64,000 bases of DNA from Minisyncoccota bacterium (GTDB lineage: Bacteria > Patescibacteriota > Minisyncoccia > Phycocordibacterales > UBA6065), in the NCBI GenBank assembly GCA_041661645.1, contig JBAZUA010000001.1, forward strand, positions 45,618 to 109,617. The letters are read 5' to 3'. This document shows, piece by piece, positions 3,349 to 36,687 of the stretch (positions within the stretch are counted from its first letter, which is position 1; each line of letters starts with the position of its first letter). Below the pieces are notes generated by a model, which did not search any database, was not told where the DNA came from, and was given only the letters and a program-made list of their open reading frames with translations. The position numbers and the translations under genes were made by a program.

Positions 3349-4344
3349 TTGGCTATCAAACCCATGTCACAGCCACGAAAAATCCTCCTCTCGGGCGTAA
3401 GGCCCACTGGTCGCCCCCATATCGGAAACTATTTCGGCGCGATGAAGCAGTTCGTCGACCTCCTGAACACCGGCAACTACGAGTGCTACTTCATGATCGC
3501 CGACTATCACGCCCTGAACTTCATACAGAACAAGGCCGAGATGCAGACGAACATCATCGACCTCGCCCTCGACTATATCGCCATCGGCCTCGACCCAAAG
3601 AAGTCCGTGCTGTTCAAGCAGTCTGACGTCTCCGCCCACACCGAGCTCGCCTGGATATTCGACAGCATCACCACCATGCCATATCTCATGCGCGCGAACG
3701 CCTTCAAGGATGCGGAAGCCAAGAACTCCGAGATAAACGTGGCGACCTTCAACTATCCGATGCTCATGGCGGCAGACATCCTGATATATGACGCGGATAT
3801 AGTTCCCGTGGGCCTCGACCAGAAGCAGCACATCGAGTACACCCGCGACACGGCCCAGAAATTCAACCGCATCTTCGGCGAAACTTTCAAATTGCCAAAA
3901 GAGCTCATCGTCGAGAATGTAAAGACCGTCCCTGGCATCGACGGGCGCAAGATGTCCAAGTCATACGGCAACACCATCGGGCTCTTTGCCACCGACGAAG
4001 AGATAAAGAAGGCCGTGATGTCCATAGTCACCGACTCCGGCAAGAATCCCGACGGAACCCCATCCGTGCCGGTAAACGTTCGTGCCATTCACGAGCTCTT
4101 CCGCGACAAGGCGTATCTCGACGCGCTCTATGCCGAGAAGGCGGGAAAATATAAAGACCTCAAGGAAGCTCTGGCCGCCGACGTTCAGGCGTTCATCAGG
4201 CCGATGCGAGAGCGACGCGACAGGCTCGCACAGAATCGATCAAAGGTAATGAAAATCCTGGCAAAGGGAGGGAAGAAGGCTGCGAAGAAGGCAAACAAGA
4301 CGATGGAGAGGGTGAAGGAGGCGGTTGGCGTGACCCTCGAATAG
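3349..4344 (+). CDS. trpS: tryptophanyl-tRNA synthetase
   Basis: Class I aaRS with HIGH-type motif (GRPHIGNYFGA) and KMSKS; 331-aa length and overall pattern are typical of TrpRS. Confidence 0.9.
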   Translation: MAIKPMSQPRKILLSGVRPTGRPHIGNYFGAMKQFVDLLNTGNYECYFMIADYHALNFIQNKAEMQTNIIDLALDYIAIGLDPKKSVLFKQSDVSAHTELAWIFDSITTMPYLMRANAFKDAEAKNSEINVATFNYPMLMAADILIYDADIVPVGLDQKQHIEYTRDTAQKFNRIFGETFKLPKELIVENVKTVPGIDGRKMSKSYGNTIGLFATDEEIKKAVMSIVTDSGKNPDGTPSVPVNVRAIHELFRDKAYLDALYAEKAGKYKDLKEALAADVQAFIRPMRERRDRLAQNRSKVMKILAKGGKKAAKKANKTMERVKEAVGVTLE

Positions 4345-6456: not shown

Positions 6457-6792
6457 ATGACAACACTAGAATCACCGGAGCCGCAGGAGAAGGACAGTCA
6501 CCTCGACGCGTTCAATCATTGCCCGTGCCCACAAGGTCCGATGGACATCGCCCGCGAGGAAGAGTACATACACTTCACGAACGAGCTCCAGGGAATGCTC
6601 GCCCTGCGCAAGTTCGGCAAGGATCCCGAGACCGAGAGATTCGCGAAATGGGTGGAGATGTTCTCGGTGCGGTTCAGGGACAATTTCGAGCGTACGATAC
6701 GGGAAAATCCCCTCTATTTTGACGGAATAGCGACCATTGGTGACATAGGCGAGGAGAAGTGGGCTGATCTCGAGGAAAAGATATACAACTAA
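6457..6792 (+). CDS. hypothetical protein (111 aa) between the T-box leader and aspS
   Basis: ORF MTTLESPEPQEKDSH… with a protein-like charged/helical composition; no SD; no recognisable domain. Confidence 0.35.
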   Translation: MTTLESPEPQEKDSHLDAFNHCPCPQGPMDIAREEEYIHFTNELQGMLALRKFGKDPETERFAKWVEMFSVRFRDNFERTIRENPLYFDGIATIGDIGEEKWADLEEKIYN

Positions 6793-6800
6793 CAAAAACC

Positions 6801-8201
6801 ATGGAACGAACATACATAAAAGACCTTGAATCAAAGATGGGGCAGGAAGTGACCATCGCGGGATGGATAGACATTAGGCGCGACCAGGGTAAGCTCATAT
6901 TCATCGACTTCCGCGACATGACGGGATACGTGCAGGGCGTGGTGCTTCCAAACGCCAAGGACGCACAGGCCGTTGCATCAACCGTCCGATCTGAATGGGT
7001 CGTCGAGGTCAAGGGCAAGGTAAACCCTCGCCCCGAGAAGAACGTCCAGAAGGACAAGCAGAACGGCATGATCGAGCTGGAAATTCTCGGCATTACGGTG
7101 CTGAACGAGGCACAGACTCCGCCGATCGACGTACGCTCTGACGGCAGGGAGATCGGCGAGGAGAGCCGCCTGACCTATCGATACCTCGACCTGCGCAGGC
7201 CCCGCATGCAGAAGAACATACGAAACCGCCACGCGGTGAACATGTTCATCAGGAACTGGCTGACCAAGGAGGGCTTCGCCGAGATCGAGACCCCGATGCT
7301 CACCAAATCTACCCCTGAGGGATCCCGAGACTATCTCGTCCCATCCCGCATCGAGAACGGCAAGTTCTATGCGCTCCCTCAGTCACCCCAACAGTACAAA
7401 CAACTCCTCATGTCGGCAGGCTTCGAGAAGTACTTCCAGATCGCCCGATGCCTCCGCGACGAGGACTCTCGCGGCGACCGACAGCCTGAGTTCACCCAGC
7501 TCGACATGGAGATGAGCTTCGTAGCACAGGAGGACGTCATGGCCCTGAACGAGAGACTCTTAATTGAAATGGTTCAGACCGTGGCCCCGCACAAGAAGAT
7601 CCAGCAGATTCCCTTTCCCCGACTCAGCTACAAGGAGGCGATGGAGAAATACCAGAGCGACAAACCGGACATCAGGAACGACAAAAACGATCCCGACCTT
7701 CTCGCCTTCGCCTGGGTCATAGATTTTCCACAGTTTGAGAAGACTGATAAGGGTGGATGGACCTTCAGTCACAATCCATTCTCGGCGCCAAAGCCAGAGC
7801 ACGTCGACATGCTCCTCAAAAAGGAGAATATCGGTGACATAGTCGCCACCCAGTACGACATCACCCTCAACGGATTCGAAATCGGCGGGGGTGGCATCCG
7901 AAACCACAAGCCCGAGATGCTCGAGAAGGTGTTCGAAATCATGGGTCATTCCCCAGAGAAGATAAAGGAAAACTTTGGGCACATGCTCGATGCCTTCTCC
8001 TTTGGCACCCCTCCGCACGGCGGCATCGCCTGGGGCATCGACCGCGTCATGGCGATACTCGAGAACGAGCCGAACATACGCGAGGTCATCGCCTTCGCCA
8101 AGACGGGAGAGGGGAGGGACCTCATGATGAAGACCCCGTCAGAGGTATCGACCGAGCAGCTCATCGAGCTCGGCATCAGCGTGAAGAAGGCCGGAAAATA
8201 G
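6801..8201 (+). CDS. aspS: aspartyl-tRNA synthetase, short archaeal/eukaryal-type (no GAD insertion)
   Basis: N-terminal OB anticodon-binding domain, class II motifs (…FQIARCLRDEDSRGDRQPEFTQLDMEMSF…GGGIRNH…GIDRV); 466 aa is too short for a bacterial-type AspRS carrying a GAD domain. Confidence 0.9.
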   Translation: MERTYIKDLESKMGQEVTIAGWIDIRRDQGKLIFIDFRDMTGYVQGVVLPNAKDAQAVASTVRSEWVVEVKGKVNPRPEKNVQKDKQNGMIELEILGITVLNEAQTPPIDVRSDGREIGEESRLTYRYLDLRRPRMQKNIRNRHAVNMFIRNWLTKEGFAEIETPMLTKSTPEGSRDYLVPSRIENGKFYALPQSPQQYKQLLMSAGFEKYFQIARCLRDEDSRGDRQPEFTQLDMEMSFVAQEDVMALNERLLIEMVQTVAPHKKIQQIPFPRLSYKEAMEKYQSDKPDIRNDKNDPDLLAFAWVIDFPQFEKTDKGGWTFSHNPFSAPKPEHVDMLLKKENIGDIVATQYDITLNGFEIGGGGIRNHKPEMLEKVFEIMGHSPEKIKENFGHMLDAFSFGTPPHGGIAWGIDRVMAILENEPNIREVIAFAKTGEGRDLMMKTPSEVSTEQLIELGISVKKAGK

Positions 8202-8223
8202 GAAACGATACTATCAACCTGGA

Positions 8224-8258
8224 AAGCCCCGCATCGAAAGACGCGGGGCTTTTCGTTC
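8224..8258 (+). terminator. rho-independent terminator after aspS
   Basis: AAGCCCCGCG…CGCGGGGCTT hairpin + TTTCGTTCG. Confidence 0.6.
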
Positions 8259-8436
8259 GTACTATCAGGAGGGACGGGTTACAAACACCCTCCCACAGCT
8301 CCTTATGAGGCACGGACCTATATGCCGAAGCCTCGAGCCCGCGGTCCTCGAGCGCCTATATGGCCTCGGCCCAAGCGAGCAGGTATTCATGGGGATCAGA
8401 TGACTGTCGGGCATAGCCTGACCATCGGAAACCTCG

Positions 8437-8481
8437 GTGCCCGCGCCCACACTTGAGGCGCGGGCACCTTTTATCATTTTG
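8437..8481 (+). terminator. rho-independent terminator inside a long intergenic region
   Basis: GGTGCCCGCGCC-CACACTTGA-GGCGCGGGCACC hairpin followed by TTTTATCATTTT. Confidence 0.55.
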
Positions 8482-8495
8482 CCTCGCCAATACCC

Positions 8496-8523
8496 TTGAC
8501 GGATACAACCCATGTGCTATCCT
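8496..8523 (+). promoter_or_regulatory. candidate sigma70-type promoter (TTGACG-16 nt-TATCCT)
   Basis: -35/-10-like hexamers in the spacer upstream of scpA; followed by ~300 nt rich in hairpins ending in a terminator-like hairpin (~8792-8830). Confidence 0.3.
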
Positions 8524-8889
8524 TTATGTGGGTCGAGGATAGTTTTTCCTCCCCCACAGCTCTTTGACGGGGCACACAAACATCAGGTAGGGAGGATTCG
8601 TTCTCCCTACAAGGCACTGTATTCCCTCAAACTCGCGTTTCCATGATACACATTTGGCTTCGGCCAACGCGATCGGAATTGTTCTTTGTCTTGTGGCCGT
8701 CTGGATTTTTTTCCGCGCCCACGCCATCTCGGGTCTCCCTTTCGGAAACCCATCTGACGCATCCCTCACCAGATCGTCACCCACCCCTTTAAGCCGCTTC
8801 CTCATCTTTTTTGAGAAGCGGCTTTTCTATTGCCCGATGCGCCCGGTCCCGATGTGCTAAAATAGGCTCGCAAGCCAAAATAAACCCAC

Positions 8890-9609
8890 ATGTCATTCAC
8901 CGTAAAGCAGAACAAGTTCGAGGGCCCTCTCGACCTCCTCCTCGACCTCATCGAGAGGAGGAAGCTTTTCGTGAACGATGTCTCCCTGGCACAGGTTGCC
9001 GACGACTATATCGCCTATGTCCGAAATCTCGCGGACTTTCCCGTGGCAGACAGCGCCCATTTCGTCCTCGTCGCCTCGACGCTCCTCCTCATCAAATCCA
9101 AATCACTCCTGCCGACACTCAACCTGACCGTCGAGGAAGAGGCGAGCGTCAAGGACCTGGAGCATCGCCTGAAGATGTACGAGAAGATTCGCGAGGCGAG
9201 CGTAGGCGTGAAGGCCCTCTTTGGGGCGCGGCTCCTCTTCGCCCGAAGCGAGCGAGCCCTCGCTCCCACCTTCTCGCCCGATGCCGACATGACCGTCGGG
9301 AACCTCTTCGCCGCCATCGGCCGCGTCCTGGCCCATCTCCCGAAGAAGGAGTTCCTGCCAAAGGTGATCATCGACAAGGTCATGTCCCTCGAGGAGATGA
9401 TCGGCAACCTGACCGAGCGCATCGGCTCGGCCCTCAAGATGAGCTTCAGGGAGTTCTCGGGCACGGGTAAGGCCGAGCGCGTCCATGTCATCGTCTCCTT
9501 CCTCGCCATGCTCGAGCTGGTCAAGCAGGGCGTCATACAAGTGAGCCAGGAGAGGCATTTCGACGACATACAGATGCAGACCGAGAGCCTCGACGTGCCG
9601 CGATATTAA
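8890..9609 (+). CDS. scpA: segregation and condensation protein A
   Basis: N-terminus MSFTVKQNKFEGPLDLLLDLIERRKL… typical of ScpA; immediately followed by scpB. Confidence 0.85.
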   Translation: MSFTVKQNKFEGPLDLLLDLIERRKLFVNDVSLAQVADDYIAYVRNLADFPVADSAHFVLVASTLLLIKSKSLLPTLNLTVEEEASVKDLEHRLKMYEKIREASVGVKALFGARLLFARSERALAPTFSPDADMTVGNLFAAIGRVLAHLPKKEFLPKVIIDKVMSLEEMIGNLTERIGSALKMSFREFSGTGKAERVHVIVSFLAMLELVKQGVIQVSQERHFDDIQMQTESLDVPRY

Positions 9610-9675: not shown

Positions 9676-10224
9676 ATGAATCCGCTCAGCCTGGAATCAC
9701 AGCTCGAAGCGCTCCTGTTCTGGAAAGGGGAGCCGATGTCGACCAAGAAGATCGAGGCGGCTTTGGGCTGCACGGCCGATGAGCTGGCCGCGTCCACGAC
9801 CGCCCTTGAGGCCAATCTGGGTGGCCGCGGCCTCCGCATCATGCGCCACGAGGGCGAGCTTGAGCTGCGCACCGCTCCCGAGGCGAGCGACCTCATCACG
9901 AAATTGACCAAGGAGGAGCTCATGCGAGACCTCGGCAAGGCCGGCCTCGAGACCCTCTCCATCATTTTATACAAGGGGCCCGTCAAGCGATCCGAGATCG
10001 ACTACATACGCGGGGTGAACTCGTCCTTCATCGTCCGAAACCTGCTCGTCCGCGGACTGGTCGAGCGCATGGCCGAGAAGGAGGGCGACAAGAGGGGATT
10101 CCTCTATGGCCCAACCCTCGACCTGCTCGCCCACATGGGCGTGGCAAAGAGGGAAGACCTCCCCGATTACGAGAAGACCCGCGCCGAGCTCGAGGCATTT
10201 TCAGCAACAAGCGATGAAGCCTAG
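9676..10224 (+). CDS. scpB: segregation and condensation protein B
   Basis: Tandem winged-helix pattern (LEALLFWKGEPMS…; …ILYKGPVKRSEIDYIRGV…) typical of ScpB. Confidence 0.85.
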   Translation: MNPLSLESQLEALLFWKGEPMSTKKIEAALGCTADELAASTTALEANLGGRGLRIMRHEGELELRTAPEASDLITKLTKEELMRDLGKAGLETLSIILYKGPVKRSEIDYIRGVNSSFIVRNLLVRGLVERMAEKEGDKRGFLYGPTLDLLAHMGVAKREDLPDYEKTRAELEAFSATSDEA

Positions 10225-11146
10225 GAGCATGGCCATATTGCAGCTGAGCGCCCTGGCCCTGTGCCTCGGGCTCATCCTCTGGTGGGCATATCCAAAGGCG
10301 GCCGTCACCGTGCCTCAAGTACAGCTCAGCGAAAGCGTCTCCACAACGACCTCTCCCATCTTCGATGCGGTGAACATCGAGGCAAAATCCGCCTACGTAT
10401 ACGACACGGTGACCAAGAAAGTCATCTTCGACAGGAACTCCGACCTGCAGCTGCCGCTCGCGTCCCTGACCAAGGTGATGACGGCACTCGCGGTGTCCAA
10501 CCTTCTCTCGGACAGGGATGTGGTCACGATAACCCAAAGCGACCTGAGCGAGGACGGCGACACGGGCCTCGTGCCCAACGAGGAGTGGAGCGTCAAGGAC
10601 CTGCTCGACTTCAGCCTGATCGTCTCGTCGAATGACGGCGCCCGCGCCCTGGCATCGGTGGCAGGCGCCTTCCTCGGCCCGACCTCCTCGACCTCTGCCG
10701 TCGAGGCCTTCGTGGGCAACATGAACTCGACCGCAAAAGGGCTCGGCCTCACCGAGACCTACTTCCTCAACCCCTCGGGACTCGACGCCTCGGAAACCCT
10801 CGCCGGGGGATATGGGTCGGCAAAGGACATGGCCCTCCTCGTCGACCACATACTGAGGAACAAACCACACCTCCTCGAGGCAACCTCCTTTGACAGGCTC
10901 AGGATCTCGTCCGGCCTTGCAGCCCACGAGGCCCTCAACACCAACAAGGCGATCGACATGATACCGAACGTCATAGCCTCGAAGACAGGGTATACGGACC
11001 TCGCCGGCGGCAACCTGGTGGTGGCCTTTGACGCCGGCGTCGCCCACCCTATAATCATAGCCGTCCTCGGCTCCTCCTTTGACGGCAGGTTCCAGGATAT
11101 GGCTCAACTGGTTAGTTCCACGCTCGACTATCTGGCGCAGAAATAG
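10214..11146 (+). CDS. D-alanyl-D-alanine carboxypeptidase / serine-type PBP (S11-like)
   Basis: Signal peptide; SxxK (ASLTKVM), SxN (SSND) and KTG (ASKTGYT) motifs; start overlaps the scpB stop. Confidence 0.85.
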   Translation: MKPRSMAILQLSALALCLGLILWWAYPKAAVTVPQVQLSESVSTTTSPIFDAVNIEAKSAYVYDTVTKKVIFDRNSDLQLPLASLTKVMTALAVSNLLSDRDVVTITQSDLSEDGDTGLVPNEEWSVKDLLDFSLIVSSNDGARALASVAGAFLGPTSSTSAVEAFVGNMNSTAKGLGLTETYFLNPSGLDASETLAGGYGSAKDMALLVDHILRNKPHLLEATSFDRLRISSGLAAHEALNTNKAIDMIPNVIASKTGYTDLAGGNLVVAFDAGVAHPIIIAVLGSSFDGRFQDMAQLVSSTLDYLAQK

Positions 11147-11161: not shown

Positions 11162-11190
11162 TTGACTTTTCTCATATATAGTGATACAAT
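11162..11190 (+). promoter_or_regulatory. near-consensus sigma70-type promoter (TTGACT-17 nt-TACAAT)
   Basis: Hexamers at 11162-11167 and 11185-11190, ~85 nt upstream of the 11274 start. Confidence 0.5.
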
Positions 11191-11273
11191 AGTACAAGGA
11201 AATACACCCAAGCTCTTTGAGAACTCAACAGCACGTTGTTTCTTTTTCCGGCTTACCTACGAAAGGATTAGAC

Positions 11274-12575
11274 ATGAGCGAAAGCTCCGTCAGCGAAACC
11301 ACTGCCGGCCAAGGCGTCAAAGCCAAGGCTGTTGTCATCATCAACACAATCATCACTCACGCCCGTCCTCACTGGGACGAGACCGTGGGCATAACCCTCA
11401 TCCAGGACTACGGCAAGGACACGTTCGATACCAGCGGGGCCAGCATCATCACCGTCAAGGGTGACCCCAAGGAAATCGAAGCGTATGCCAAGCGCCCCGA
11501 TCTCATCATGATCGGCGTCGGTGGCGACCTGGTCAAGATGAAGGGTCGGCAATGCTTCATCTTCGATGAGCACGGGCTCACCGACAAGAAGTGCGCGGCG
11601 GACCTCGTGGCGGAATATCTCGGCGTTGACGAGCGGCTCATGCCTCTCCTCATCGAGGTTCGCGAGAGCGACCTCGAGCGCAAGAATAACCCCCTGTCGA
11701 TGGCGACTGTCCTGAAAGTGAGCCACGACCAACGCCCCCACGAGGAGGCCAAGGTGATCGAGCTCGGACTGCGGGCCGCGAAAGCGATCTGCGTCAGCCT
11801 TCTAGGCACGGGCTTAGTGGCAAAGGATCCCGACACCTTCCTGGTGAAGGCCTCCGAGGCCTACGTGAAGATTGGCGGGGCGAACGGCGTCAAGCCGATC
11901 GTCTTCAAAAATCTGATCGAACAGCTCCAGGTGGCGGCGGCCGCGAAGACCTTTTCCGAAATCAGCACGGTGTTCTACATCATGCAGGCGGAAAACAGGG
12001 AAGAAGCTGGATATTGGCTGAGCAAGGTCCTCACGGACCTCGTTCGTCGCCACGTCGACTTCGACCGTGCGCTCGAGGACTTCAACTCAAATCACGACGA
12101 AATCAGCGTCCCGTTCGGAAACAACGGCGCGACCATCCGAGTCGCCTTCATGAAAATGGAGAAGGAGTATGGCCTGATGGATCAGGTCTTCCGGTGCAAG
12201 CAGGCCGGCGGATGCGACATGTTGATCCTGAAGAACACGAGGGGTCAAGTCTGCATCTTCACCAATGACAAGGGTCAGAAGGGGAGATTCGACCTCGATC
12301 CTCTCGCGAGAATGATCCGCTGGGCGGAAATCGCGAAGTCGAAGCGCCACCCTGAGGGTTGGTGGTCGCTCAGTTGCGACCGTGATCATCCGGGCGTATG
12401 CCAGTGGCATTACTTCAAGAAGGGCTCGATGCTGCTGAATGGGAGCAAGAGCAAGCCCGATGTGCCTGCTACGCGGTTGGGTTACGAGGATTTCGTCTAC
12501 ATCCTCGGGTGCGCGTTCTCGGCGAACGGCATCAGACAGTTCATCAAGGACAGTCAGGTGGACACGAAAAAGTAA
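11274..12575 (+). CDS. hypothetical protein (433 aa), stand-alone transcription unit
   Basis: RBS AAAGGA 6 nt before ATG 11274. Own consensus promoter and own terminator. Cys/His/Trp-rich C-terminal part (…GWWSLSCDRDHPGVCQWHYF…). No domain I can assign. Confidence 0.6.
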   Translation: MSESSVSETTAGQGVKAKAVVIINTIITHARPHWDETVGITLIQDYGKDTFDTSGASIITVKGDPKEIEAYAKRPDLIMIGVGGDLVKMKGRQCFIFDEHGLTDKKCAADLVAEYLGVDERLMPLLIEVRESDLERKNNPLSMATVLKVSHDQRPHEEAKVIELGLRAAKAICVSLLGTGLVAKDPDTFLVKASEAYVKIGGANGVKPIVFKNLIEQLQVAAAAKTFSEISTVFYIMQAENREEAGYWLSKVLTDLVRRHVDFDRALEDFNSNHDEISVPFGNNGATIRVAFMKMEKEYGLMDQVFRCKQAGGCDMLILKNTRGQVCIFTNDKGQKGRFDLDPLARMIRWAEIAKSKRHPEGWWSLSCDRDHPGVCQWHYFKKGSMLLNGSKSKPDVPATRLGYEDFVYILGCAFSANGIRQFIKDSQVDTKK

Positions 12576-23714: not shown

Positions 23715-23839
23715 AGTGGAATAAGATTACCATATTCCCCTGCCCTGAGCCAGATTCCCGAGCATTGACAATCACCTATTTAAAATAGTATAGTATCGCC
23801 TGAACTTCTGCCTATCAACCCGCCTGTTCCCTCAAAAAA

Positions 23840-24064
23840 ATGGACCTTAGACGCTTGGTATCAAAAATAATGATCGTGATCGGAGCAATCCTGCTGCCCT
23901 TTTCCATCATCATGTTCTCGTGGAGGGGTCACGACTCTTCACTTGACCAGTTCCTCTCAAAAGCAATCATGCTGGGCTTCTTCCTTCTCCTTTCGGGAAT
24001 CTACCTCTACCTGCCAACCCGTAACAGGGGCACGTGGGACGAGGAAAGCCTTTCCCAAAGATGA
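23840..24064 (+). CDS. small two-TM membrane protein, hypothetical
   Basis: 74-aa ORF; followed by a hairpin terminator (24086-24120: ATCCCGC…GCGGGATTTTTT). Confidence 0.3.
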   Translation: MDLRRLVSKIMIVIGAILLPFSIIMFSWRGHDSSLDQFLSKAIMLGFFLLLSGIYLYLPTRNRGTWDEESLSQR

Positions 24065-24154
24065 CAGGGTGATCCCCTCTAACGCAAATCCCGCAAGCTG
24101 CAAGCTCGCGGGATTTTTTGCCCCTATATACCGCCCACACGTCTGACTCTCCCC

Positions 24155-28340: not shown

Positions 28341-28387
28341 GGATGGCTGATATTATAACACCGCTAGTGCATGATATAATCTTTTCC

Positions 28388-29209
28388 ATGCGGACTATTT
28401 CTCGAAAGGGCTTTACCCTCGTTGAGCTCCTGGTCGTCATATCGATAATCAGCCTCCTCGCAAGCACCGTCCTGTCAACCCTAAGCGGCGTCCGAGACAA
28501 GGCTCGCGTGGCCGCGGGAAGGGAGTTCAACGCGATCGTCTATCACACCATAGGCGATATGGCCGTGGGCGTCTGGAGCTTCGATGAGTGCTCGGGAACG
28601 GCAGTGTCCGACACGTCGAGTTTGGGGAACAACGGAACCGTTGGATCGACGCTCTGGTCGAGCGACACGCCAACAGGATCGGGCTGCTCCCTCTCGTTCT
28701 CGACCTCCTATGTCAGCGTCGGCACATCAAACATGCCGAACATAGAGTCACCAAAGACCTTTAGCGTGTGGATAAAATACAACGGCGTCCCTGGCGGGAG
28801 CACGATCAACCTCTTTGCCGGCGGAAGCAACTCGATACAAATGGGCTTTAGCGGCGGAACGGCATTCAGGGTCTGGAAATATGGCGGATCGGCGCTCGTC
28901 AGCCTGCCAAGCCTCTTCTCTTCCGGCGTCTGGCATCAGGTAGTCTACACGTATGACGGGACGAATCACATACTCTATCTAGACGGAGCGGAAAAAGCCC
29001 GCTCGACGAGCGTCTCGGGACAAAGCGGTCAGACCGTAAGCGCCTCACTGGGCGGATCCGTATACGACAACCTGATAGGCATGCTCGATGACGCACGCGT
29101 CTATTCCTCAACCATTTCAGCGCAGGAAGTCGGAAGGCTCTACGCTGACGGACTATCGGCCCATCGTCCCATGGCGGACATTTCAACACTCATCCGGCCG
29201 AAGATCTAG
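28388..29209 (+). CDS. prepilin-type protein with C-terminal LamG-like (ConA-like lectin) domain
   Basis: N-terminus MRTISRKGFTLVELLVVISIISLLASTVL; C-terminal …LDDARVYSSTISAQEVGRLYADGL (LamG_3-like). Confidence 0.7.
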   Translation: MRTISRKGFTLVELLVVISIISLLASTVLSTLSGVRDKARVAAGREFNAIVYHTIGDMAVGVWSFDECSGTAVSDTSSLGNNGTVGSTLWSSDTPTGSGCSLSFSTSYVSVGTSNMPNIESPKTFSVWIKYNGVPGGSTINLFAGGSNSIQMGFSGGTAFRVWKYGGSALVSLPSLFSSGVWHQVVYTYDGTNHILYLDGAEKARSTSVSGQSGQTVSASLGGSVYDNLIGMLDDARVYSSTISAQEVGRLYADGLSAHRPMADISTLIRPKI

Positions 29210-32072: not shown

Positions 32073-32266
32073 GCAGCTATCGAAACCTCAGGGACAGAGA
32101 GATCGAGATTATCCCAGGAAACCCCGGAGAGCCGGTATTCGCGTCATGTACCGAACGAGACAGGTTCTGGGAGCGTTTCTACGAGAAGGTCCAGCCAGAG
32201 CTTGACGAGCTAGCTCGAAAGCGAGCGTTGTGCAATCCCCCGTTCCCACTCATTCGTCATACCTAG
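32069..32266 (+). CDS. small hypothetical protein (65 aa), ATGA-coupled to the upstream gene
   Basis: ATG 32069 overlaps the TGA of the 31527 ORF; followed by two consecutive terminators. Confidence 0.3.
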   Translation: MSSYRNLRDREIEIIPGNPGEPVFASCTERDRFWERFYEKVQPELDELARKRALCNPPFPLIRHT

Positions 32267-32271
32267 AAACA

Positions 32272-32370
32272 AAGGCCCCGCAATCTTGCGGGGCCTCTTT
32301 TATTTCCAAGAGTTCTTCATTAAAAAAACAAAGACGACGGGAGAATAAATTCTCCCGTCGTTTTTTTTGA
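32272..32370. terminator. two tandem rho-independent terminators
   Basis: AGGCCCCGCAA…TTGCGGGGCCT + CTTTTATTT (32272-32305), then ACGACGGGAGA…TCTCCCGTCGT + TTTTTTTT (32330-32370). Confidence 0.6.
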
Positions 32371-32599
32371 GGCCTACCATCCCCTCACAAGACGTATATA
32401 TGATTTCTTTTTAGTCTTGAAGGTTCAGCTTCCTCGCGGGGGCTCTGTTTCCCCTAGGCTGCTTTTTAAAAAAAGCAATAAACTATGGTTTTTGAGCTCG
32501 TTAACGGAAACGAGTCCCGGCGCTCAAAACCTGACACTGTAGGAACAGTTTTTCAACTTCCTATATATGATAGCATATTGTATAAACATTGTCAAGTAT

Positions 32600-35898: not shown

Positions 35899-36667
35899 AA
35901 TGAAAATAATCACCCTTAACACCTGGGGCGGTCGAGCGGGAGCGAAGAATCTCCTTTCCTTTTTCGATGCACACAAAGACTCCGTCGACGTGTTTTGCCT
36001 CCAGGAGATATGGTCTGCTGAGTACCCTCAGAACGAGGGACGTCCCGCCGGAAGCATTCCAATAAAACTGTCGGACATACAGACCAGGGGCCTTCAAGAG
36101 ATAACCGCCGTTCTTTCGAACCATGTCCCCTATTTCAGACCACACTATGGAGATAATTACGGTCTTCTCATGCTCGTGCGAAAAGATATCAAAGTATTAG
36201 ATGAGGGAGAACTCTTCGTCCACAAACATAAGGGATACGCGCCAACGGAAAACGCAGGCCTTCATGCCAGGAACATACAATACATAACATTGAAAGAAGG
36301 CGGCGAAACACTAACCGTGATCAATTTTCATGGTCTCTGGAACGGCAAAGGAAAGACTGACAGCGAAGATCGATTAATCCAGTCGAAAAACATTCTTGCC
36401 TTCACCAAGACCTTGAAAAACGAGTTCATCCTCTGTGGCGACTTTAACCTCCTGCCTGATACAAAGAGTCTCTCCATGTTTGAGGAAGACGGGCTCAGAA
36501 ACCTCATAAAGGAACATGGAATAACCTCCACCAGAACATCTTTCTACCCCCACCCTGTCAGATATGCCGATTACGTGTTCACCACCAAAAATCTAGCGGT
36601 CAAAGAATTCAGAGTTCTTCCCGAGGAAGTTTCTGACCACTCGGCAATCCTTATCGAAGTGAAATAG
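35899..36667 (+). CDS. endonuclease/exonuclease/phosphatase (EEP) family protein
   Basis: MKIITLNTWGG…; FCLQEIW, …GDFNLLPD…, …SDHSAILIEV motifs typical of EEP hydrolases. The long upstream ORF extension overlaps dnaB and is not coding. Confidence 0.75.
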
Positions 36668-36687
36668 GGTTTGGTATACTATCCCCC

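Follow-up and report, generated by a model that had tools for sequence, protein, structure and literature searches.

In the leaders of ribosomal RNA (rrn) operons, a nut-like site is bound by NusB/NusE (S10), NusA, NusG and SuhB. Trans-encoded small RNAs (sRNAs) are characterized by their own promoter, a 5' stem-loop and a Rho-independent terminator. To our knowledge, almost nothing is known about noncoding RNAs (ncRNAs) and the control of transcription in the Candidate Phyla Radiation (CPR, Patescibacteria), whose members are uncultivated and have reduced genomes. The present work deals with the spacer between aspS and scpA in an uncultivated Paceibacteria (Patescibacteria/CPR) genome, of which a stretch of 64 kb (hereafter, the window) was analyzed. 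From comparative sequence analysis, we give a probability of roughly 55% to the reading that this spacer holds two tandem, clade-specific, structured ncRNA genes, each opening with an rRNA-type nut-like signal (boxB hairpin plus boxA).

The elements of rrn leaders follow the order boxB, boxA and boxC, boxB being dispensable in rrn (PMC2724277). The gamma-proteobacterial boxA consensus is GYTCTTTAANA (PMC5725501), and the Escherichia coli rrn element has been published as 5'-CAC-UGCUCUUUAACAA, the upstream CAC increasing the affinity of NusA (PMC2724277). Nus complexes of the rrn type resist Rho-dependent terminators, not strong intrinsic ones (PMC2724277). BoxA has also been described outside rrn, in the 5' untranslated region of suhB (Baniulyte et al. 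2017, PMC5725501) and upstream of CRISPR arrays, where it shields the untranslated transcript from Rho (Stringer et al. 2020, PMC7665894). The published boxA surveys mainly covered Proteobacteria, Bacteroidetes and Cyanobacteria and did not consider ncRNAs (PMC5725501, PMC7665894).

Results

A 5' module common to two units of the aspS-scpA spacer

Pfam places aspS at 6801-8201 and scpA at 8890-9609, the two genes named as neighbors in the original prediction made from the bare sequence of this region. Relatives of the AspRS encoded here come from metagenome-assembled genomes of Paceibacteria, and one source labels the ScpA "Candidatus Paceibacterota". The spacer between them is 688 bp long (8202-8889) instead of the 630 bp first given. 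Three terminator hairpins with T-runs are found, as proposed, on the + strand (8223-8252, 8436-8468 and 8791-8824), which carries all elements of the units described below; a strict terminator scan listed none of the three, their loops being longer than 8 nt or their stem mismatched. The proposed promoter-like element TTGACG-16-TATCCT (8496-8523) is likewise present, with a TG upstream of its -10. The prediction had also noticed a motif occurring once in each of two segments. Both copies exist, the first at 8292-8313 (about 13 nt away from the 8279-8305 first assigned) and the second at 8553-8575, and what they truly have in common is just 13 nt plus GGCAC. The 13-mer CCCACAGCTCYTT has no occurrence in the 64 kb other than these two (at 8292 and 8553, both in the spacer), against 0.12 expected from shuffles. 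A hairpin closes before each copy, as had been claimed, and the one that belongs to the second copy is GGG..GAGGA/TCCTC..CCC (8530-8554); the hairpin originally named in its place (GTAGGGAG/CTCCCTAC, 8587-8610) sits downstream of the motif, not before it.

In every genome, a covarying hairpin begins roughly at the predicted +1 of both units and is followed by (C)CAC-N-GCUCYUU, the module being this hairpin plus CAC-A-GCUCYUU(R)A. The unit 1 hairpin, at a boxB-like position (8268-8293), can be drawn as GGAGGG/CCCTCC or GGGA-GGGU/ACCC-UCCC and covaries to GGGATGG/CCATTCC, GGGAG/CTCCC and GGGAC/GTCCC in relatives. It leads into the boxA-like element CAC-A-GCTCCTTATGA (8294-8308, repeat D3; CAC-A-GCUCCUUAUGA as RNA), which is kept in 8 relatives. 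In unit 2, the hairpin begins at the predicted +1, also in a boxB-like position, and turns into GGGGA/TCTCC, AAGAG/CTCTT or GGAAG/CTTCC in relatives; the boxA-like element that comes next is CAC-A-GCTCTTTGACG (8555-8569; CAC-A-GCUCUUUGA as RNA).

A third copy of the motif stands outside the spacer, in the 5' leader of a hypothetical 433-aa gene (ATG at 11274, no Pfam match) located between dacC and ftsW. Together with its upstream promoter TTGACT-17-TGATACAAT (11162-11190), it covers 11162-11231 and includes GCTCTTTGAGA (11212-11222) and GAACTCAACAG (11221-11231), the stretch 11205-11231 reading CACCCAAGCUCUUUGAGAACUCAACAG. The copy is kept at the same place in three relatives (L092, L094 and L086). 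A 452-aa open reading frame (ORF) listed here with a TTG start (11217) begins within this motif copy, and its start is probably wrong.

Compared with GYTCTTTAANA, a consensus that is gamma-proteobacterial and may not be the lineage's own boxA, the third copy (GCUCUUUGAGA) matches at 10/11 positions, and those of unit 2 (GCTCTTTGACG) and unit 1 (GCTCCTTATGA) at 9/11 each. CAC-N precedes the motif in units 1 and 2, where hairpins also occupy the boxB position directly upstream; the third copy is without such a hairpin. In all three cases, 27-40 nt separate a conserved promoter motif from the boxA-like element downstream of it, the start sites themselves being predicted.

We read the P2 leader of E. 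coli rrn directly; it consists of a -10 TATTAT, the hairpin GCCGCU...AGCGGC, AC, TGCTCTTTAACAA and, about 20 nt further on, GGGCAC. Its boxA region was written for comparison as CAC-U-GCUCUUUAA, CAC-T-GCTCTTTAACA or hairpin-AC-U-GCUCUUUAACAA. The likeness extends over the whole arrangement, with a promoter, a hairpin near +1, CAC, one nucleotide and, some 25-35 nt after the start, GCUCUUU(R)A. Unit 2 agrees with the CAC-boxA at 13/15 positions, and the GGCAC found here a few nucleotides after the motif has its counterpart in the GGGCAC of E. coli boxC. We also take GAGAACUCAACAG of the window to resemble the mycobacterial rrn boxC GAACUCAAUAG, presumably bound by NusA. Unlike rrn leaders, no rRNA follows here; the modules are two in tandem, and the predicted transcripts of ~200-300 nt end at intrinsic terminators. 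Moreover, position 8 is a G here and an A in the boxA consensus. A broader scan of other Paceibacteria loci for a promoter followed by GYTCTTTRA returned L051 and L061, of which L051 overlaps a start codon and is probably a chance match; these candidates were not retained.

Conservation and covariation of a noncoding spacer

Comparison of the spacer with 80 GTDB-representative aspS loci (blastn and tblastx) returned nothing in common, which confines the elements to a narrow clade. To find closer relatives, we used ScpA homologues (81-89% identity) and a single metagenome pattern scan, which yielded L092 and L094; a pattern-scan match in L090 was discarded as a chance occurrence inside coding sequence. 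Same-strain contigs (L081-L084) were uninformative, being identical save for one single-nucleotide polymorphism. A T>C change at position 8700, in the T7 run of unit 2, is the sole difference between the window and three other same-strain assemblies over 2-6 kb. L085 and L094 align with ~71% identity along nearly the whole spacer, and L088, L092, L086 and L087 align partially. L096 carries unit 2, and L097 (ScpA identity of 74%) has a divergent two-motif form.

Identity along the spacer is a mosaic, reaching 0.74-0.87 at 8325-8369, 0.85 at 8515-8529 and 0.72 at 8755-8784, and falling to ~0.3 at 8400-8429. As a baseline, aspS, scpA and scpB show identities of 0.54-0.68 to these relatives at their four-fold degenerate sites. 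The structural signal points in the same direction. For unit 1, 88% of the cells are paired (38-45% in slid controls) with 10 compensatory pairs (2-5 in controls), and none of 500 shuffles attains the observed values. For unit 2, 86.8% are paired (49-58% in slid controls), with 7 compensatory pairs against 0-3. Fold z-scores lie between -2.8 and -6.4 in all genomes. The features of the spacer, conserved above the synonymous-site baseline and with covarying helices, therefore exceed chance.

The spacer is noncoding, as is apparent from frame-breaking indels, the lack of periodicity, the absence of Pfam families, implausible translations and missing gene calls. The lengths of most indels are not divisible by 3, substitutions affect the three phases evenly, without 3-periodicity, and no gene was called in the spacer in four independent assemblies. 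Only short ORFs are present, as originally described, with 0 Pfam matches. A small protein or type I toxin-antitoxin system was considered and rejected, there being no conserved short ORF and no Pfam match, and the translations being of low complexity.

Known RNA families did not account for the region either. Rfam 15, whose families include riboswitches and the T-box, gave 0 matches over the whole window at the gathering threshold, in keeping with the failure of the original prediction to recognize RNase P, signal recognition particle, transfer-messenger (tmRNA) or 6S RNAs by eye. Below the threshold, the window spacer and those of L088 and L094 gave terminator-like matches only. ARAGORN detected no tRNA or tmRNA, our literature search on CPR sRNAs found nothing relevant, and additional copies of the conserved blocks were found neither in the 64 kb nor in 1.4 Mb of related loci.

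Architecture of unit 1

Unit 1 (about 8268-8478) is predicted to be ~205 nt long (8268/8272 to 8478) and is laid out as upstream blocks, 5' hairpin, boxA-like element, core, variable linker and a terminator, T2. The promoter-like blocks CGAAAG-N17-CGTACTAT (8234-8265) are kept with their spacing in the window, L085, L086, L087, L088, L092 and L097, in the invariant form (T/C)GAAAG-N16/17-CGTAYTA. The (T/C)GAAAGA block is held in the loop of the P1 hairpin (8223-8252, followed by TTTTCGTT; 8223-8257 in all, inverted repeat I2), a hairpin with T-run that putatively acts as the aspS terminator in the window genome. The block moves with unit 1, and its TGAAAGA is invariant in 8 sequences although the stem varies. 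In L087, it adjoins unit 1 though aspS is not upstream, and L097 likewise keeps the block with unit 1 without that terminator context.

The sequence of these blocks admits two readings, one with TACTAT as a -10 that lacks a well-spaced -35, the other with TGAAAG-N16/17-CGTA as an extracytoplasmic function (ECF) sigma-like layout. Promoters of the sigma-W type have the layout TGAAAC-N16-CGTA, and sigma-E-dependent sRNAs include MicA and RybB. The likeness of unit 1 to the sigma-W type is a lead, with the differences that its -35 ends in G instead of C, that no ECF sigma gene was identified and that no second site was seen in the window or loci. As no other TGAAAG-N16/17-CGTA site exceeded chance in the window or the relatives' loci, the idea of an ECF-sigma regulon was dropped.

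The core (8298-8380), predicted to fold as a three-way junction, has the strongest conservation in the spacer. Its predicted helices are H1 (GCUCCU/AG(C)GAGC), H2 (GAGGC/GCCUC), H3 (CGG/CCG) and H5 (CGAG-C-GCC[UAUAU]GGC-CUCG), and its invariant loops include GCC[UAUAU]GGC. Such a core could bind a protein or a ligand. T2 (8436-8480), at the 3' end of the unit, is made of a perfect 12-bp GC hairpin (8436-8468) and TTTTATCATTTT, with a covarying stem (GGTGCC/GGCACC, GATGCC/GGCATC, GACGCC/GGCGTC). Competition of GCCCGCG in the core with T2 as an anti-terminator was envisaged and dropped, since the complementarity is lost in L087 and L086. A covariance model of the unit 1 core (R1) matches in 7 genomes only and finds nothing in L095-L097; a weak match in L062 was rejected for being full of noncanonical pairs. 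Since R1 does not detect unit 2, the claim of homology between the two units is limited to their 5' module.

Architecture of unit 2

The promoter of unit 2 (8496-8523), TTGACG-16-(TG)cTATCCT, is of the sigma-70 type with an extended -10. It is conserved in 8 genomes as TTGACR-16/18-TGcTATCYT, in which -35, spacing and extended -10 are all kept. The unit itself is predicted to measure ~300 nt (about 8530-8832). Behind the boxA-like element comes a variable structured middle (8570-8754, including the hairpin at 8587-8610) without a conserved frame, which the window, L085 and L094 have and L088, L092, L086 and L087 lack. It is followed by a conserved 3' hairpin, UGACG-C-AUC[..]GAU-CGUCA (8755-8779; helix 3, 93.8% paired with 3 compensatory pairs), and by the intrinsic terminator T3 (8791-8833, inverted repeat I5), a perfect 10-bp hairpin (8791-8824) plus TTTTCTATT. 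The stem of T3 covaries, and a T-tract comes after it in 8/8 genomes with unit 2. The unit is C-rich and G-poor, its GC skew of -0.31 to -0.33 being the most negative of the neighbourhood; this rut-like composition (C>G) is as expected for a candidate Rho substrate. An enrichment in CsrA-type GGA was looked for by eye and rejected, not being above expectation.

Modularity of the locus

Seven close genomes all contain both units in an arrangement that varies. Their order is reversed in L087 (unit 2, then unit 1), a LamG pilin-like gene separates them in L086, and PemK lies between unit 2 and scpA in L088 and L096; insertion of such cargo is confined to the gaps between units. What lies next downstream of unit 1 is unit 2, the LamG gene or scpA, with a promoter intervening each time. 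In addition, scpA has its own extended -10 promoter, TGCTAAAAT (8855-8863), which lies after T3, outside the RNA units, and is conserved in L086, L087 and L092. This variable order, the insertions between units and the separate scpA promoter speak for self-contained units rather than one scpA leader. A riboswitch or attenuator of scpA was also discarded as an explanation of unit 1, whose downstream gene varies and is always separated from it by a promoter.

Other features of the neighbourhood

TGnTAnnnT is, from its distribution, clearly the general promoter motif of this genome: 21 of its 34 matches in the window fall in the 11% of intergenic DNA, typically 4-54 nt before start codons. The distance is often just 4-12 nt (e.g., 34421, 36672, 48318, 45432 and 59253), and these positions suggest that many mRNAs are leaderless or have very short leaders.

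Some relatives have no 433-aa gene, and dacC and ftsW are then separated by a noncoding stretch of 330-420 nt with a strong promoter (L085 6279-6640; L095 6265-6680; L096 3510-3835). A clear intrinsic terminator is seen in L085 and L096, and GTTCTTTGA or GTTCTTCTAGA near the 5' end in L095 and L096. These three spacers may be further ncRNA units of a like kind. In L097, a public gene call of 130 aa (3540-3932) spans a divergent boxA-containing noncoding region with two CA(A)CAGCTCTTT copies, a 3' hairpin and a terminator, and is probably spurious. As a warning for annotation, the ORFs of 82, 93 and 130 aa that are sometimes called in the aspS-scpA spacer, as in this example, are to be regarded as spurious.

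The aspS-scpA synteny is widespread in the group, and the junction is an insertion hotspot holding from 4 bp to ~2.2 kb (L001-L097). Its cargo comprises PemK toxins, LamG/N-methyl pilin-like genes, a nucleotidyltransferase-like ORF, an M16 peptidase and unannotated ORFs; in L085, ~600 bp of extra unannotated sequence without a called gene (3410-4000) separate the unit 2 terminator from scpA. On the other side, a hypothetical protein of ~106-111 aa without Pfam family (window 6460-6792) is encoded clade-wide directly upstream of aspS (or YceI-aspS), with counterparts at L081 568-903, L085 421-753, L095 202-522 and L097 1713-2033. Downstream, the ORFs of scpB (9676-10224) and the D-Ala-D-Ala carboxypeptidase (10106-11146) overlap by 119 nt as listed. 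In relatives, the carboxypeptidase begins ~10 nt before the scpB stop; in the window, 10106 is therefore probably too far upstream to be its true start. Other long gaps of 440-747 bp are found at 28341-29087, 32073-32599, 36146-36687 and 23715-24154, and orphan promoter motifs, some of them in these gaps, at 28348/28372 (+), 32567 (-), 23249 (+) and 48351 (+). The divergent promoters at 28348-28380 are predicted to drive genes for pilin-like proteins that have GFTL(V/I)ELL at the N-terminus. More ncRNAs may be present in part of these long gaps.

Discussion

The comparison with relatives upholds the core of the original prediction. Its proposal of one or two structured ncRNAs with a common module is supported by two units with covarying helices and without a conserved reading frame, and the motif is kept in relatives. 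Its alternative, repeated protein-binding sites, was partly right, at the level of RNA, as a boxA-type signal. We consider that the units are probably transcribed as ncRNAs and, with slightly less confidence, that the motif they share is a functional boxA. In sequence and in position, the module matches the boxA region of rrn leaders, and it is best explained as a NusB/S10 signal on the nascent RNA rather than as a functional domain of the RNAs. Such a boxA would bring NusB/S10 with NusA/NusG to RNA polymerase, and this loading would guard the untranslated, C-rich transcripts against Rho-dependent termination and may aid their co-transcriptional folding. The intrinsic terminators would then fix the 3' ends.

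Several observations weigh against this reading. Consensus positions 8-11 are poorly kept in several copies of the motif (e.g., GCTCCTTCACA, GCTCTTCGTCA and GATCTTTCGAG), with drift at positions 5-11, and no rRNA gene occurs in the window or any fetched locus, the rrn leader used for comparison being that of E. coli. The predicted fold of unit 1 pairs the boxA core within helix H1. The promoter of this unit is unorthodox, its -35-like block lying 19-20 nt from TACTAT, and the T-tract of T2 is clear in 3/7 genomes and weak in 4/7. As for covariation, it involves ~5 independent lineages, which provide little statistical power, and the structure was partly derived from the window sequence. Finally, fold energy does not tell the strands apart, all copies folding well below their shuffles on both, and the counts of G.U versus A.C favor the + strand mildly (21 to 10 in unit 1, 10 to 8 in unit 2). 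The assignment to the + strand follows from the promoters, the T-tracts (of T3 in every genome, of T2 in some) and this mild G.U excess.

Another way to understand the units is as trans-acting base-pairing sRNAs whose GCUCCUU/GCUCUUU seed pairs with Shine-Dalgarno sequences (AAGGAGC/AAAGAGC) and blocks translation, the likeness to boxA being coincidental. The succession of promoter, 5' hairpin, conserved motif and terminator is indeed sRNA-like, and the motif is complementary to AAGGAG and predicted to be unpaired or looped in unit 2. However, the match with rrn leaders reaches past the CU-rich core to the CAC, the hairpin and the distance from the promoter, and the motif recurs ahead of a protein-coding gene, in its 5' leader, where a seed is not expected. 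Besides, no complementary site was found in the window, and the motif of unit 1 is predicted to be paired intramolecularly. We hold this explanation to be unlikely. The two units nevertheless resemble trans-encoded sRNAs, including duplicated "sibling" sRNAs, by their size, architecture, clade-specific distribution, intergenic location and tandem organization with a common 5' module. They differ from siblings in that a signal for transcription accounts for the shared segment better than a seed does and that the case for paralogy is limited to the 5' module.

To the same degree unlikely, in our opinion, is that the whole spacer forms a regulatory leader of scpAB-dacC-ftsW-murG, in which boxA-modified polymerase would read through T2 and T3 and the sRNAs would be attenuated products. 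All elements are co-oriented with scpA, three terminators in tandem accompany two boxA-like sites, T2 is without a good T-tract in L085, L086 and L087 with the next promoter directly after it, and a further boxA is present in the leader of another gene of the cluster. On the other hand, scpA is preceded, after T3, by a conserved promoter of its own, the units vary in order, unrelated PemK and LamG cargo is inserted between them and scpA, and in many relatives just 4-30 bp separate aspS from scpA. Furthermore, readthrough of T2 and T3 would be at odds with the described behavior of rrn-type Nus complexes, which resist Rho-dependent terminators and not strong intrinsic ones, and the core of unit 1 is conserved far beyond the needs of a spacer leader.

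It is considerably less probable that the conserved blocks act as DNA, be it as operators, as sites of recombination or integration hotspots, or as what is left of a mobile element. The hotspot nature of the junction (cargo of 4 bp to 2.2 kb) and the invariance of TGAAAGA and GCCTAYATGGC as sequence would fit such a function. Yet the hairpins are maintained by compensatory changes, G.U pairs are conserved, and promoters are paired with terminators; no integrase or transposase was found, nor any extra copy in the 64 kb or 1.4 Mb of related loci, and the motif is not palindromic. Least credible of all are small proteins encoded by the 68-aa TTG ORF (8654-8860), which has a hydrophobic, transmembrane-like N-terminus, or by minus-strand ORFs (8265-8513 and 8524-8805), which nearly tile the spacer where AT and GC skew change sign, given low-complexity translations without Pfam matches, frame-breaking indels against every close relative, substitutions even over codon positions, a unit 2 middle absent in four genomes and no gene called in four independent assemblies.

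Returning to the reading of two ncRNA genes headed by nut-like signals, the closest precedents outside rrn are suhB and the CRISPR arrays. Here too, boxA would stand in the leaders of non-rRNA transcripts, and the third copy, ahead of the 433-aa gene, resembles the suhB case. The difference is that the transcripts predicted here are short, structured, terminator-bounded RNAs in a CPR bacterium. Most likely, their bodies act as small RNAs of a regulatory or protein-binding kind. The units are neighbors of the scpAB-dacC-ftsW-murG cluster by position. We put forward as a tentative and rather doubtful extension that Paceibacteria (CPR) place rRNA-type Nus loading sites before lineage-specific structured ncRNAs and leaders around this cluster of genes for cell division and the cell wall, and that the ~85-nt core of unit 1 would represent a new structured class of antitermination-dependent RNA, binding a protein or ligand or forming part of a stable ribonucleoprotein. 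On that view, small regulatory RNAs of a phylum with minimal genomes would join rRNA and CRISPR arrays among the transcripts that depend on boxA.

To conclude, our results do not reveal a new mechanism but add to the candidate sRNA genes and non-rRNA boxA elements of a poorly studied phylum. If the proposed reading is true, they would provide two comparatively supported sRNA candidates and a likely boxA sequence for this lineage. They would also place Nus-factor (boxA) signals on small noncoding transcripts, a class that was excluded from the published survey (PMC5725501).

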